Shown here: one piece after another, positions 37,311 to 43,262 of the stretch | Layout: each line of letters opens with the position of its first letter | Numbering within the stretch: position 1 is the first letter of the stretch | Assembly: GCA_014874265.1 (NCBI GenBank) | Contig: JACWAM010000018.1 | Span: 5,955-69,954, forward strand | From: Thermoleophilia bacterium | GTDB lineage: Bacteria; Actinomycetota; Thermoleophilia; BMS3ABIN01 | DNA: 64,000 nt | Reading direction: 5' to 3' | Made by a program: the position numbers and the translations under genes | The notes under the pieces: generated by a model | Seen by the model: only the letters and a program-made list of their open reading frames with translations | Databases searched by the model: none | What the model was told of the DNA's origin: nothing

Positions 37311-37339
37311 TTGACAAAAGCTCTAGGCCACGATATAAT
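37311..37339 (+). promoter_or_regulatory. sigma-A-type promoter TTGACA-17-TATAAT upstream of the Rrf2 regulator/cysK operon
   Basis: ttgacaaaagctctaggccacgatataat inside an AT-rich island. GGAG RBS precedes ATG 37390. Confidence 0.6.
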
Positions 37340-37389: not shown

Positions 37390-37830
37390 ATGAACATTTC
37401 AGCTAAGAGCAAGTATGCGGTACGAGCCCTGGTTGAACTGGCGCAGCACAATGGCGGAGCCCCGGTGCCGATTGGTGACATTGCGTCCAGGCGTGACATC
37501 CCCCTTCAGTTCTTGGAACAGCTTTTTTCTAGTCTCCGTAAAGCCGGAATCTTAAACAGCCATCGTGGCGTCCGTGGCGGTTTCAGTTTTAAAAAGCTTC
37601 CGGAAGACGTCAGCGTGCTCGATGTGGTGGAAATTCTTGACGGGAATATTGCTCCCGCTGCCTGCACAATCGGCGGCGAATGCGACAAGCTGAGCCGTTG
37701 CGCGGTTCGCGACGTCTGGGTTGACGCCAAAAAAAGCCTAGAACAGGCGCTTGGCGCCTCCAGCATCGCCGAGCTTGCCGACCGGGAGCAGGCGATGCAG
37801 GAGAATGTCCGGGAGATGTATTACATCTAA
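37390..37830 (+). CDS. Rrf2-family transcriptional regulator (CymR/IscR-like, 3 Cys)
   Basis: MNISAKSKYAVRALVELA... with Cys ligands CTIGGECDKLSRC. Confidence 0.8.
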   Translation: MNISAKSKYAVRALVELAQHNGGAPVPIGDIASRRDIPLQFLEQLFSSLRKAGILNSHRGVRGGFSFKKLPEDVSVLDVVEILDGNIAPAACTIGGECDKLSRCAVRDVWVDAKKSLEQALGASSIAELADREQAMQENVREMYYI

Positions 37831-37867: not shown

Positions 37868-38824
37868 ATGAGAACTGTCGAAACCGGGGCAAAAACCATA
37901 GTTGATGATGTAACTGAACTGATAGGCAACACGCCGATGATCAGGTTACGGCGGCTTGGCGGGGATCAGGCCGGCATGGTCGTGGCGAAGCTTGAGAGTT
38001 TTAATCCGGGTGGCAGCGTCAAGGACCGGATCGGGATTGCCATGATCGAAGCGGCCGAGCACGACGGCAAGATCGTGCCCGGCCAGACCGTCATAATCGA
38101 ACCCACTAGCGGCAACACCGGCATCGCGCTGGCGTTCGTCTGCGCCGCCAAAGGTTACCGTTTAATCCTGACCATGCCCGAAACTATGAGTATTGAGCGG
38201 CGGTCCCTTCTGAAGGCGTTCGGCGCCGAGCTGATTCTAACCCCGGGCCCGGGGGGCATGCGTGGAGCAGTGGAAAAAGCCGAGGAGTTAATCGGCCTTT
38301 ATGATGACGCATTCGTGCCGCAGCAGTTCAATAATCCCGCCAATCCAGAGGTGCATCGGCAATCGACCGCAGAGGAAATCTGGCGTGACACGCAGGGCGC
38401 CGTCGACATCTTTGTGTCGGCCGTCGGTACCGGCGGCACCATTACGGGTGTTGGCGAAGTGATCAAGGAAAGAAAACCCTCCGCGAGGGTAATCGCCGTG
38501 GAGCCCAAGGCGTCGCCGGTGCTTTCCGGCGGCGAAGCCGGACCGCACCGGATTCAGGGCATCGGCGCGGGCTTTGTTCCGGATGTGCTCAATACCGGAA
38601 TTTATGATGAGGTTGTCCAGGTGAGTAATGAAGAGGCCGAGCAGATGGCCCGGCGGCTGGCGCTCGAGGAAGGACTGCTCTGCGGTATCTCCTCAGGGGC
38701 GGCTGCTTTTGGAGCGCTCACGGTTGCGCGCCGGCCCGAAAATAAGGATAAAATGACGGTAGTCCTTCTTCCGGACACGGGAGAACGATATCTGACCACG
38801 CAATTGTTTGGCGATGCCAGATAG
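37868..38824 (+). CDS. cysK: cysteine synthase (CysK/CysM-type PLP enzyme)
   Basis: 318 aa with PLP lysine GGSVKDR and SGNTG. CysK vs CysM cannot be assigned. Confidence 0.85.
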
Positions 38825-38877: not shown

Positions 38878-39117
38878 TTGAATATCAAGGAGGATTTCCT
38901 GCTGGACGCACGCGGTCTCAAGTGCCCCATGCCTTCGGTAAAGACCGCCCTCGCGCTTGAGCAGCTGGGCGGGGGCGGGATTGTCAAGGTGATGATTGAC
39001 GATCCGGTAAGTAAAAAGGATCTGCCGGCGTGGGTGCGCGGAAACGGCCACCAGGTGTTAGGCATTGACGACCGGGATGGTTTTGTTGAGGTATACGTTA
39101 AAAAATCCGGAGGTTAG
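38878..39117 (+). CDS. tusA: TusA-like sulfurtransferase
   Basis: 79 aa, LDARGLKCPMPSVKTALALEQL, CPxP motif. Confidence 0.8.
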   Translation: MNIKEDFLLDARGLKCPMPSVKTALALEQLGGGGIVKVMIDDPVSKKDLPAWVRGNGHQVLGIDDRDGFVEVYVKKSGG

Positions 39118-39118
39118 C

Positions 39119-39448
39119 ATGAATCAACACCACCCCGGTTCAAAAAAGGAAGACAAGCTGTTAGAATTAGAAGACAGGCCGCCGTTGGCGGCTTCTGCTC
39201 TTCATCTGGTCGTGCAAGGGCGGGAGAAGGTTTATCTTGGTCCCCGGGATATGCGGTCTTTGCTGGAAGCTCTGGGCGAGAACCTGTCATACGCCAATGT
39301 GCGTCTCAACGGCACGGTCCTAAACAGGCGGGATTTTGAAAATATCCCTTTGCAAGACGGGGACAGAGTAGATTTCCTTTATTTTATGGGAGGGGGAAGT
39401 TGTTCGATCTCTCCGAAGCTGAAATCGAGCGTTACTCCAGGCATATAA
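39119..39448 (+). CDS. ThiS/MoaD/CysO-like sulfur-carrier protein with an encoded C-terminal tail beyond Gly-Gly
   Basis: ...VRLNGTVLNRRDFENIPLQDGDRVDFLYFMGGG-SCSISPKLKSSVTPGI*. The beta-grasp core ends GGG and the frame runs 18 codons further, overlapping the moeB start. GGAGG RBS precedes ATG 39119. Confidence 0.6.
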   Translation: MNQHHPGSKKEDKLLELEDRPPLAASALHLVVQGREKVYLGPRDMRSLLEALGENLSYANVRLNGTVLNRRDFENIPLQDGDRVDFLYFMGGGSCSISPKLKSSVTPGI

Positions 39449-40230
39449 TCCTGCCCGAGCTGGGTGGCGCGGGGCAGCAGAAACTGAAACAGGCGAGCGT
39501 CCTTGTGGTTGGCGCCGGCGGGCTTGGATCTCCGGCGCTGCTTTACCTTACCGCGGCGGGAGTGGGCCGGATTGGCGTCATCGAGGACGACGTTGTCGAT
39601 TTGACCAATCTTCAGCGCCAGGTTCTACATGGCACCTCTGACGTGGGACGGCCGAAGGTGGTCAGCGCCAGCGAGACGATGAAACAGCTCAACCCGCATG
39701 TCCAGATCGATGTTTACAATCAACGCCTCACCAAGGAAAACATTTTTGACATCATTGAAAAATATGATGTTATTGTCGACGGCGTTGATAACTTTCCGAC
39801 GCGTTACCTTTTAAACGACGCCTGCGTCATGAAGCAGAAAACGCTGGTGGAGGGCGGCATACTCCGCTTTATGGGACTGATCATGAGTATTCGCGGTGGC
39901 GAGACCGCCTGCTACCGCTGCGTTTTTGAGGATCCACCTCCGCCCGGAGCTGTGCCCAGTTGCGCTGAAGCTGGAGTCCTGGGCGCGGTCGCCGGCGTGG
40001 TCGGGACCATGCAGGCCACCGAAGTGCTCAAAATTCTGACTGGATTCGGGCAGCCGCTTTATGATCGGCTACTCCAATTCGACGCCGAGGAGCTCCGTTT
40101 CCACGAGGTTAAGGCAAGGCGCAATCCAAAATGCCCGGTTTGCGGCGAAGATCCCAGTATTACCGAGCTCATCGAGTATGAATACACCTGTGAAACCCAG
40201 ACTCCGCTAGCTGATGCCGGGGGGGATTAA
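39400..40230 (+). CDS. ThiF/MoeB-type E1-like adenylyltransferase (no rhodanese domain)
   Basis: TTG start after RBS ggaggggga. (M)FDLSEAEIERYSRHIILPELGGAGQQKL...VGAGGLGSP with C-terminal CxxC...CPVC Zn site. Confidence 0.8.
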   Translation: MFDLSEAEIERYSRHIILPELGGAGQQKLKQASVLVVGAGGLGSPALLYLTAAGVGRIGVIEDDVVDLTNLQRQVLHGTSDVGRPKVVSASETMKQLNPHVQIDVYNQRLTKENIFDIIEKYDVIVDGVDNFPTRYLLNDACVMKQKTLVEGGILRFMGLIMSIRGGETACYRCVFEDPPPPGAVPSCAEAGVLGAVAGVVGTMQATEVLKILTGFGQPLYDRLLQFDAEELRFHEVKARRNPKCPVCGEDPSITELIEYEYTCETQTPLADAGGD

Positions 40231-40651
40231 TCTTACCCGCTCCCAGCTCGAGGCTGTTTTTGAGCACGCGAAGCGGCAGCAGCCTGAAGAAGCATGCGGT
40301 ATTCTCGCGGGCGATCCGGACGGAAGCGTGCGCCGCGTCTTTTTGATGGAGAACGCCGAGCACAGCTCGATCCTGTATATGATGGACTCGACCGAGCAGT
40401 TCGAGGTTTTTGATCAGATGGAAAAGGATGGCCTTGAACTGGTCGCCATCTTTCATTCTCACCCCCACTCTCCCGCCTTTCCCTCTGCCCGCGACTTGGA
40501 ACTGGCTTTCTATCCGGAATCGCTATACCTGATCGTGTCTCTCATGGATGACGAGCCTCAGTATCATGCCTTCAGGCTCGCCAGAGGCCAGGTTGCTGAA
40601 GCCCCGCTGGTTATTCTGGATGATATAAAAGAGAGCCTTGATGAAGCCTGA
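40214..40651 (+). CDS. JAMM/MPN+ metalloprotease (Mec+/CysO-processing type)
   Basis: EACGIL...HSHPHSPAFPSARD, the JAMM motif. Confidence 0.75.
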   Translation: MPGGINLTRSQLEAVFEHAKRQQPEEACGILAGDPDGSVRRVFLMENAEHSSILYMMDSTEQFEVFDQMEKDGLELVAIFHSHPHSPAFPSARDLELAFYPESLYLIVSLMDDEPQYHAFRLARGQVAEAPLVILDDIKESLDEA

Positions 40652-41477
40652 AACCGGGCCGGCTGGCGCTGCAAATGATTTAAACCGGCTCATTCTTGCC
40701 ATCAAGCCGCTGGATAGCCTGGCGGTGGGATTCTCCGGCGGAGTCGATTCATCGGTAGTGGTAGCCGCTGCGGTTGAAGCGTTGGGAGCGGGAAATGTGG
40801 TGGCCGTTACCTCAGCCTCGGAGACCTTGCCGGCCCGGGAGATGAAAGCAGCCCGCCATCTGGCCCGGAAAATCGGATGCCGCCACGAAATCATCCGGAC
40901 CGGCGAGCTTGAGATGAATGAGTTTGCCGCCAACCCTCCCGACCGCTGTTACTATTGCAAAACGGAGCTGTGGAAACAGGTTAGGAAAATCGCTTCGGAA
41001 TTGGGGCTAAAGAATATTGCTGACGGCGTCAACGCCTCCGATTTGGGAGACTTCCGTCCCGGGATCAGGGCCAGCGACGAATGCGGCGTCGCGCACCCGC
41101 TCGCGGCGATCGGCGCCGGCAAGGAGCAGGTCCGTGGCATCGCCCGGGAGCTGGGCCTTCCCAACTGGGGCAAGCCCGCCGAGGCATGCCTTTCATCCCG
41201 CTTTCCTTACGGTAACACCATTACGGCCGCCGGCCTCAAGCGCGTGGAGCGGGCCGAGGAACTGCTCAAGGAGAACGGGTTTAGGCAGCTGCGCGTTAGA
41301 GACCACGGGGACATCGCCCGCATTGAGGTGCCGCCAGAGGTGTTTCATAAACTGACGAATGGCAGCAGATCAGAAATTGTAAAAGGACTCAAGGAACTTG
41401 GTTATAGCTACGTTACCGTTGACCTGGAAGGGTTCCGGAGTGGCAGCATGAACGAAACGCTAAAAAACAGTTCATAG
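40638..41477 (+). CDS. LarE-like PP-loop ATP pyrophosphatase (TIGR00268 family)
   Basis: SGGVDSS PP-loop, then DRCYYCK...ACLSSRFPYG. Confidence 0.65.
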   Translation: MMKPETGPAGAANDLNRLILAIKPLDSLAVGFSGGVDSSVVVAAAVEALGAGNVVAVTSASETLPAREMKAARHLARKIGCRHEIIRTGELEMNEFAANPPDRCYYCKTELWKQVRKIASELGLKNIADGVNASDLGDFRPGIRASDECGVAHPLAAIGAGKEQVRGIARELGLPNWGKPAEACLSSRFPYGNTITAAGLKRVERAEELLKENGFRQLRVRDHGDIARIEVPPEVFHKLTNGSRSEIVKGLKELGYSYVTVDLEGFRSGSMNETLKNSS

Positions 41478-41553: not shown

Positions 41554-41811
41554 TTATTCGATGAACGAATCCAGAAACTCGACCTCAATGCCCAGATCCT
41601 GTAAATAGTTGATTGCTCTGTCAAGCTCATTGTCCTCGCCGCTTAATTCCAGGACCATCCAGCCGAATTTCTCGTCGACGTTGGCGCGCCTGATGTTGGG
41701 GATGACATCGAATTCCTTGGCGAGATTGTATGTGACGGGTTTCTGAATCAGACGTTCCGGAAAGGTAAGTTCGAGCCGCTTTGTTCTCATTTTTTCCTCC
41801 TGACAATTCAC
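41554..41811 (-). CDS. small NIL/ACT-like domain protein
   Basis: 85 aa, RLELTFPERLIQKPVTYNLAKEFDVIPNIRRANVDE...GWMVLELSGEDNELDRAINYL. Likely start at MRTKRL (41790). Confidence 0.45.
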   Translation of the reverse strand: MNCQEEKMRTKRLELTFPERLIQKPVTYNLAKEFDVIPNIRRANVDEKFGWMVLELSGEDNELDRAINYLQDLGIEVEFLDSFIE

Positions 41812-42953: not shown

Positions 42954-43262
42954 TTGAGCAAAGTACGGAGGTTAGTACTTGACGTTCTTAAACCGCACCA
43001 GCCGACCATACTTGACCTGGCGGTCAAACTGGGCGACCTGGAAGGTATCGAGGGAACCGACGTCGTTCTGAACGAGATTGACAACAAGGTGGAAAATATC
43101 AAGATCACGCTGGAAGGATCGCATATAAACTTTGATGAAGTGGCGGCAGTAGTCCAGGAGAGTGGCGGCAGTATCCACAGCATCGACAAGGTGTCCACCG
43201 GCCGCGAGCTGATCGAGGAAGCAAATACGCCCCAGGATATCACTGCCCGCTGGATGAGATAA
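42954..43262 (+). CDS. DUF211-family protein
   Basis: 102 aa, VRRLVLDVLKPHQP. Confidence 0.5.
   Translation: MSKVRRLVLDVLKPHQPTILDLAVKLGDLEGIEGTDVVLNEIDNKVENIKITLEGSHINFDEVAAVVQESGGSIHSIDKVSTGRELIEEANTPQDITARWMR

Follow-up and report, generated by a model that had tools for sequence, protein, structure and literature searches.

The gene at positions 39119..39448 (forward strand) of a 64,000-nucleotide (nt) stretch of DNA from a Thermoleophilia bacterium (assembly GCA_014874265.1, contig JACWAM010000018.1, positions 5,955 to 69,954; the whole stretch is referred to below as the window) encodes a ThiS-family sulfur carrier whose reading frame runs on for 16 residues beyond Gly-Gly-Gly (GGG). 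The carrier is most probably an obligate pro-form in a sulfur-assimilation operon of the ThiS-E1-JAB-SirA kind, trimmed by a JAMM protease before adenylation, with a tail whose length of 16 residues is incidental. It is an ordinary member of the known class of JAMM-processed sulfur carriers, and it illustrates how an overlapping gene, here moeB, can dictate both the sequence and the length of a disposable pro-peptide.

An initial annotation of the window had described a ThiS-like carrier encoded as a pro-form, with E1 and JAMM genes in its operon. The profile matches agree with it on both genes, and the matches to PF02597 and TIGR01683 together with the residues beyond GGG agree with it on the pro-form. 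The tail itself was also found on reading the open reading frame (ORF), but its length of 18 residues has to be corrected to 16, which is also the number of letters in the string originally given. The overlap with the TTG start of the E1-like gene, estimated at about 49 nt, is 49 nt, and the JAMM gene said to lie nearby is located at 40214..40651, downstream of moeB, with an intact metal motif.

Carrier gene and encoded protein

The features of the carrier gene and of its junction with moeB are the following.

39119..39448, + strand: gene for the ThiS-family sulfur-carrier pro-protein, 109 amino acids (aa) plus stop (profile, homologue and structure-prediction matches)
39119..39199, + strand: N-terminal extension of about 27 residues (MNQHHPGSKKEDKLLELEDRPPLAASA), predicted disordered by AlphaFold2 (AF2), clade-specific
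39200..39397, + strand: beta-grasp core, residues 28-93, with the invariant FLYFMGGG at its end (AF2, end of the hidden Markov model at residue 93, match to 2K5P)
39389..39397, + strand: three Gly codons, GGA GGG GGA, doubling as the Shine-Dalgarno sequence of moeB (sequence; GGAGGNGGA conserved in relatives)
39398..39445, + strand: 16-residue tail SCSISPKLKSSVTPGI, moeB codons 1-16 read out of frame, with removal by JAMM predicted
39400..39448, + strand: overlap of carrier gene and moeB, 49 nt (sequence)

The ORF starts with ATG directly after the stop of the TusA gene and is preceded, at a distance of 6 nt, by the Shine-Dalgarno sequence GGAGG. The product matches Pfam PF02597 (E=1.2e-8) and scores 40.8 bits with TIGR01683, above the cut-off of 37.45; these matches and the predicted fold place it in the ThiS/MoaD beta-grasp family. 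The GG at the end of the ThiS profile is aligned to G92-G93 of the carrier. The core ends in DFLYFMGGG, of which MGGG are residues 90-93, and the C-terminal region reads ...DRVDFLYFMGGG (91-93), followed by the tail SCSISPKLKSSVTPGI and TAA. The closest solved structure is 2K5P/3CWI (2K5P, E=1.3e-9), which itself ends in ...FLYFMGGGK. In an AF2 model based on the family alignment the core is confident, with a predicted local distance difference test score (pLDDT) of about 90 or more over residues 28-90 and block means of 89-96 over residues 31-90. The pLDDT is below 50 at residues 1-21 and about 55 in the tail, which is modelled without secondary structure. G93 is the predicted mature C-terminus. 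The family is characterized by GG at the very C-terminus, which the carrier as encoded lacks; with 16 residues beyond GGG the protein is therefore a precursor that requires processing. A cognate E1-like adenylyltransferase is encoded by the ThiF-domain gene whose start lies within the 3' end of the carrier gene.

Within the N-terminal extension a pattern ..SEK...LS.. is loosely conserved in the alignment of the Thermoleophilia-like clade; the extension is absent from relatives in other phyla. Identity with the ThiS of thiamin synthesis was considered and rejected, as thiG, thiH and thiC are missing from the neighbourhood and the surroundings belong to cysteine and methionine metabolism.

Tails in the carrier family

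Relatives were collected in a genome scan of one genome per species (573 relatives), of which the best 80 loci were analysed; the search pattern ended at GGG and so did not select for tails. In addition, 1.84 billion cluster representatives were searched exhaustively with a profile, which yielded 1235 hits; the best 148 were examined, and 138 of these contained xMGGG.

The carriers in the best 80 loci of the genome scan read ...FLYFMGGG followed by 1-18 residues, one of them being an in-frame fusion, and none stops at GGG. These loci are distributed over Actinomycetota, Geobacterales, Bacillota, Bacteroidota, Planctomycetota and others. The 49 homologues found in the database, for the most part in metagenome-assembled genomes (MAGs) of Thermoleophilia or Actinomycetota, all have an invariant MGGG and then 2-30 residues. 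When distinct sequences are pooled, 127/127 carry a tail (1-30 aa) or a fusion, with a median of 3 residues and 12 sequences having at least 16. Among the xMGGG cluster representatives 137/138 are tailed (median 3, longest 43), and tails of at least 16 residues are found in 19 of the 138 (14%); within the family, the 16 residues of the window rank near the 86th percentile. Given this 14%, the tails of 29-30 aa in the syntenic clade and the existence of an in-frame fusion, the tail can no longer be called unusually long, as it had been. A tail of zero length occurs once in the 265 sampled sequences of the FLYFMGGG type, namely in P0172 (68 aa), the only one to end exactly at GGG. In the comparison of orthologs that had been suggested as a check, the presence of a tail was conserved almost throughout, but neither its length nor its sequence. 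The canonical ThiS proteins 1F0Z and 2CU3 end exactly at GG, as do five of seven relatives with the motif xxF[AILV]GGG.

A JAMM gene follows MoeB, completing a ThiS-MoeB-JAMM triad, in 78 of the 80 loci; the remaining two are truncated at a contig end. The distinguishing features of a JAMM-processed pro-carrier, residues beyond Gly-Gly and a JAMM gene with intact metal motif in the cluster, are both present in the window. It could be argued that JAMM is only a Mec+-like hydrolase which frees cysteine from an adduct, while some other protease takes off the tail, or else the tailed form is inactive or not a carrier. The M. tuberculosis JAMM Mec+ is said to act on a tail-less carrier (the work of Burns et al. 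2005). Against this stand the joint occurrence of tail and JAMM in 78/80 loci, and the invariant GGG with an adjacent E1, which favour an active carrier. Moreover, trimming of tailed carriers is the role assigned to QbsD and CxnF (PMC5925218), and JAMMs cut any linear extension after the Gly of a ubiquitin-like protein (Ubl) (PMC8832034). A JAMM that leaves the tail alone is accordingly regarded as improbable. Since linear Ubl fusions, including one with the whole of MoaE, are cleaved by JAMMs, a tail of 16 residues is well within known JAMM capacity.

The in-frame ThiS-MoeB fusion was observed in L011:4908-6092 (uncultured bacterium Loclat_bin-05825), where the sequence reads ...FLYFMGGG-S-MNLTESQIERYSRH... 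and a JAMM gene is located just downstream. It could be a carrier-E1 polyprotein that needs cleavage to work, or a MAG error that deleted the stop. In another very large protein, P0055 (2747 aa), the carrier profile matches at seven places (best match 1537-1587), which may be tandem ThiS-like domains. Cysteine makes up 17 of 238 residues (7.1%) in the tails of the L005-L080 carriers, compared with 1.6% in neighbouring proteins, with phylogeny and stop/start codon constraints not factored in. Tails with cysteine are, for example, C, AC and SC, also at loci where moeB begins only after a spacer of 160-258 nt; the tail of QbsE is CF. This enrichment looked striking, but as it is uncorrected for phylogeny and codon constraints it was not used as evidence.

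Overlap with moeB and origin of the tail length

The start of moeB is TTG 39400, the sole start codon in its frame past a stop at 39337-39339, and this start keeps the conserved N-terminus MFDLSEAEIERYSRH. The TAA stop of the carrier (39446-39448) is built from the moeB His-Ile-Ile codons CAT ATA ATC. Counted from GGG the tail has 16 residues, or 17 when counted from the first possible GG.

Junction DNA of syntenic relatives was aligned, and codon changes were counted pairwise over the 48-nt overlap. The tail is the 5' end of moeB in the -1 frame, which holds three fixed 'stop stations' made of conserved moeB codons. At the first, TGA arises out of Leu4-Thr5 (CTG-ACN) and gives a tail of 4 aa (L002, L003); at the second, TAA arises out of His-Ile-Ile (CAY-ATA-ATC) and gives 16 aa (window, L081, L087, L089); at the third, TGA arises out of Lys-Leu-Lys (AAR-CTG-AAR) and gives 29-30 aa (L086, L084). 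The tail of the window begins with SCSI, as do several of the 4-aa tails of the clade (e.g. P0010), and it runs on past the first station because moeB has CTC-TCC (Leu-Ser) where the relatives carry CTG-ACN. The end of the tail is thus set by the first stop that occurs in the -1 frame of moeB.

In three pairwise comparisons, the codon changes in the overlap were non-synonymous throughout in the tail frame (4/4, 10/10 and 9/9) and largely synonymous in the moeB frame (4/4, 8/11 and 7/10). Silent drift in moeB always alters a tail residue, because the wobble position of moeB is the second codon position of the tail frame. The synonymous bias in moeB, together with a tail in which every change is non-synonymous, points to selection on moeB with the tail as a passenger. 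Tail lengths among syntenic relatives are 4, 5, 16, 29 and 30 aa, and in the alignment the tails of the window and L089 are identical at 6/16 positions, compared with 64% for the full-length proteins. To judge from these sequences, tail length is a by-product of the gene overlap after loss of an early stop, and not a designed feature.

The same data bear on the proposal that the long tail is a selected regulatory pro-peptide, which would gate activation or set the ThiS:MoeB ratio via ribosomes crossing the moeB start. The near-universal presence of at least one tail residue makes the pro-form as such look selected, the length of 16 aa is common to five distinct relatives, and the GGG codons, by serving as Shine-Dalgarno sequence of moeB, physically tie the translation of one gene to that of the other. 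However, the common length follows from a stop within the conserved His-Ile-Ile codons of moeB, lengths jump between five values among syntenic relatives, all changed overlap codons alter the tail while most are silent in moeB, and the tails of the window and L089 have diverged far more than the full-length proteins. Nor does the junction RNA have outstanding structure: its folding is no better than that of shuffled sequence (z = 0.43). The regulatory design that the initial annotation had tied to the long tail is therefore given only a small probability, as the tail evolves as a passenger of moeB.

A programmed -1 frameshift within GGA-GGG-GGA-A would produce a carrier-MoeB polyprotein (junction peptide ...MGGGKLFDLSEAEIER...) to be cleaved by JAMM. 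Relative to the carrier, moeB is read in the -1 frame, which is open from 39340 through the junction, and a natural in-frame ThiS-MoeB fusion exists in L011. On the other hand, A_GGG_GGA departs from the canonical X_XXY_YYZ form of slippery heptamers, structure was not detected downstream (the same fold z-score), and moeB is equipped with a TTG start and a Shine-Dalgarno sequence of its own. Nor is the frame relation conserved, as the offset in L001 is +1 and the genes of L004 do not overlap but are separated by a 55-nt spacer with stops. This explanation is very improbable. On the fold z-score and the varying frame relation, both a programmed frameshift and RNA structure at the junction were dropped as candidates.

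Finally, the tail might be an artefact, a frameshift introduced by sequencing or assembly into the G-rich stretch 39389-39397, with the true gene ending at or near GG; the junction coincides exactly with a G5 homopolymer. In P0001, the closest homologue (91% identical), the tail length of 16 aa and the overlap of 49 nt recur in ERZ27233565, GCA_021789835.1 and ERZ27236914, and tails of 16 aa are also found in P0004 (69% identical) and P0007 (64% identical), from SRR31229529, ERZ28573575 and ERZ27314304. Frame and tail length thus agree in six independent assemblies. L089 and L003 keep the frame relation of the window with GGAGGCGGA, in which a G5 homopolymer is absent. Furthermore, no single-base change in the G run yields a stop directly past GGG: by reading, deletion of a single G replaces the tail with another of about 8-9 aa, and insertion of a single G yields a carrier-MoeB fusion. 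The sequencing frameshift raised in the initial annotation is excluded by the six assemblies and the relatives without a G5 run, and such an artefact has a negligible probability. Annotators should neither 'repair' the carrier gene nor label it as frameshifted.

Gene neighbourhood

The carrier gene lies in a cluster with the order promoter-Rrf2-CysK-TusA-ThiS-MoeB-JAMM-LarE-like-NIL (minus strand)-CysE-DUF211. The remaining features of the cluster are the following.

37311..37339, + strand: promoter-like site TTGACA-17-TATAAT upstream of the Rrf2 gene, 12/12 matches to the sigma-70 consensus (consensus scan only)
37390..37830, + strand: Rrf2-family regulator (CymR/IscR-like), first gene of the cluster (Pfam PF02082, E=1.7e-34; TIGR00738)
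37868..38824, + strand: cysteine synthase of the CysK type (O-acetylserine sulfhydrylase) (TIGR01139 cysK, 452.6 bits, cut-off 350.95)
38878..39117, + strand: TusA/SirA-like sulfurtransferase (Pfam PF01206, E=6.2e-23)
39400..40230, + strand: MoeB/ThiF-type E1 adenylyltransferase, 276 aa (Pfam PF00899, E=7.5e-85; NF004281, 294.9 bits, cut-off 266)
40214..40651, + strand: JAMM/MPN+ metalloprotease (Pfam PF14464, E=3e-24; relatives 2KKS, E=4.8e-24, and PfJAMM1 5LDA, E=2.4e-11)
40638..41477, + strand: LarE-like PP-loop ATPase (SGGVDS; CxxC...C), overlapping the JAMM stop (TIGR00268, 321 bits)
41554..41811, - strand: stand-alone NIL-domain protein (Pfam PF09383, E=6.5e-21), conserved in L001-L004, L081, L084 and L086
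41923..42771, + strand: serine O-acetyltransferase CysE, supplier of O-acetylserine (TIGR01172, 238.3 bits, cut-off 210.65)
42954..43262, + strand: DUF211 protein, after CysE (profile match)

The site at 37311..37339 is the probable promoter of the operon, as judged from its sequence. This perfect sigma-70 consensus lies 50 nt 5' of the Rrf2 gene and is unusually exact for a region of high G+C content. The Rrf2 gene keeps its position in L001-L004, L081, L084 and L086. The best solved relative of the cysteine synthase is M. tuberculosis CysK1 (2Q3B, E=2.6e-132), and its score with the cysM model is below the cut-off (303.6 vs 394.2). MoeB contains GAGGLG, two CxxC pairs and the conserved Cys in VPSCAEAG. 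Its only Pfam match is the ThiF domain (residues 12-247), without a rhodanese domain, and its score of 333.7 bits with the MoeZ model NF005902 is under the cut-off of 647. The TusA/SirA-like protein is the probable sulfur relay in place of the rhodanese domain. In the JAMM protein the metal motif is intact (E26...H81-x-H83-x7-S91-x2-D94, read from the sequence), and the protein is predicted to be the tail-trimming and product-releasing enzyme.

The LarE-like gene directly follows the JAMM gene in all syntenic Thermoleophilia-like loci, and no larA, larB or larC context was seen. The LarE-like ATPase may be the sulfur-inserting enzyme of the carrier system. JAMM (aa 41-164) and LarE-like (aa 180-428) parts were observed in one ORF in Selenomonadaceae (L063:5846-7138; see also L034:3588-4286). 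The genes for the NIL-domain and DUF211 proteins flank CysE and accompany the operon in every syntenic relative; a link with methionine and sulfur metabolism is known for NIL domains. No thiamin or molybdopterin genes were found in the neighbourhood of the carrier gene.

Proposed function

JAMM trimming before adenylation, already put forward in the initial annotation, is the best-supported mechanism, given the co-occurrence in the family and the precedents of QbsE/QbsD, CxnE/CxnF and the linear fusions. The JAMM protein would cut after G93 and release the unstructured tail, whereupon MoeB would adenylate the newly exposed Gly. Sulfur relayed by TusA would turn the adenylate into a thiocarboxylate, and this would be the sulfide donor for cysteine synthesis (CysK + CysE). 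Possibly JAMM also frees the amino acid from a carrier adduct, like Mec+ and HcyD. Cleavage, adenylation, thiocarboxylation and use by CysK are steps that we infer from homology and gene context.

Several points weigh against an obligate pro-form with an incidental tail length. JAMM cleavage, its precise position (behind G92 or G93) and the consumption of a thiocarboxylate by CysK are matters of deduction. The adjacent cysteine synthase is CysK1-like and not of the CysO-dependent CysM type, and a CysK1-like enzyme normally uses free sulfide. The family sequences counted here are not phylogenetically independent. The near absence of zero-length tails also suggests that the presence of some tail is selected.

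A bolder possibility, which is doubtful, is that the pro-form is obligatory in the FLYFMGGG family even where there is free intergenic space, with the tail, in which Cys is frequent, as a safety catch, JAMM as the committed activation switch and the LarE-like protein as the missing sulfur-inserting enzyme. If this were true, JAMM would commit thiocarboxylate-dependent synthesis of cysteine and methionine. The near-universal tail and the recurring link of JAMM and LarE-like genes are testable leads on how uncultured Actinomycetota and many anaerobes may make cysteine and methionine by way of protein thiocarboxylates.

Comparison with known systems

The operon class 'type 4e' of Iyer, Burroughs & Aravind (2006) comprises ThiS/MoaD, JAB, an E1 without rhodanese, SirA and sulfur assimilation genes; SirA is always present, and the class is listed in Geobacter metallireducens, Wolinella succinogenes, Desulfitobacterium and others (PMC1779556). 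The window resembles it in its ThiS-like carrier, its E1 without a C-terminal rhodanese domain, a separate SirA/TusA in the neighbourhood, JAB/JAMM and the linkage to a pyridoxal phosphate-dependent sulfhydrylase. As for the linkage of type 4e to sulfate/sulfite assimilation or O-acetylhomoserine sulfhydrylase, the genes present in the window are CysK and CysE, while Sir, CysDN and MetY are absent. Where relatives share the carrier motif of the window, their loci show MetY between ThiS and MoeB, sulfite reductase (in some fused to TusA), CysD/N and CysA; in the clade of the window the direct linkage to sulfate reduction seems to be replaced by CysK and CysE. A sulfite reductase with C-terminal TusA adjoins the triad in L061:3834-6086, with similar large ORFs in L030, L037, L043, L052, L056, L062 and L069, and this fusion suggests that reduced sulfur is passed directly on to the carrier system.

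Systems of this kind include a methionine pathway of Wolinella succinogenes with HcyS, HcyF and HcyD, which has reportedly been described (Krishnamoorthy & Begley 2011) and in which HcyS-Ala has one residue beyond the Gly run. The Helicobacteraceae relative L061 ends in GGG-A, and the Geobacter-type 2K5P has the FLYFMGGG motif in common with the carrier of the window. Compared with the type 4e and Hcy systems, the sulfhydrylase of the window is CysK with CysE and not MetY, the cluster is without sulfite reductase and sulfate-activation genes, and it adds the Rrf2 regulator, the LarE-like PP-loop protein, the NIL protein and DUF211. Its carrier also differs in the disordered N-terminal extension of about 27 aa and in the 16-aa tail overlapping moeB.

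In M. tuberculosis the CysO-CysM-Mec+-MoeZ set is said to make cysteine from a carrier thiocarboxylate, with JAMM and cysteine synthase clustered and CysO ending at GG (likewise Burns et al. 2005, cited in PMC6225789). The window shares with it a carrier, here predicted to form a thiocarboxylate, a JAMM and a cysteine synthase in one cluster, and cysteine as the predicted product. CysM is O-phosphoserine-specific, whereas the synthase of the window is CysK1-like; MoeZ has a rhodanese domain, whereas the E1 of the window has none and TusA is separate; and the carrier of the window is tailed. The CysK1-like synthase and the rhodanese-less E1 rule out the CysO/CysM system, and with a separate TusA as well, the CysO-like label first attached to the carrier is weak, the cluster fitting type 4e.

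Known JAMM-processed pro-carriers are QbsE (GG-CF) with QbsD, and CxnE (GG plus the decapeptide SEAARAEESR) with CxnF (PMC5925218). These systems, for thioquinolobactin and chuangxinmycin, respectively, resemble the window in having residues beyond GG and a JAMM in the cluster to which exposure of GG before adenylation is assigned. They differ in belonging to secondary-metabolite clusters with a MoeZ-type E1 that has a rhodanese domain, in tails that are not out-of-frame readings of the next gene, and in the carrier subfamily (CxnE is MoaD-like). In linear fusions, HvJAMM1, PfJAMM1 and DRJAMM (MoaD-MoaE) cut behind the terminal Gly irrespective of what comes next (PMC8832034). PfJAMM1 is homologous to the JAMM of the window, and its kind acts on MoaD/SAMP substrates in molybdenum cofactor biosynthesis or protein conjugation, in place of the sulfur amino-acid operon in which the carrier of the window is encoded.

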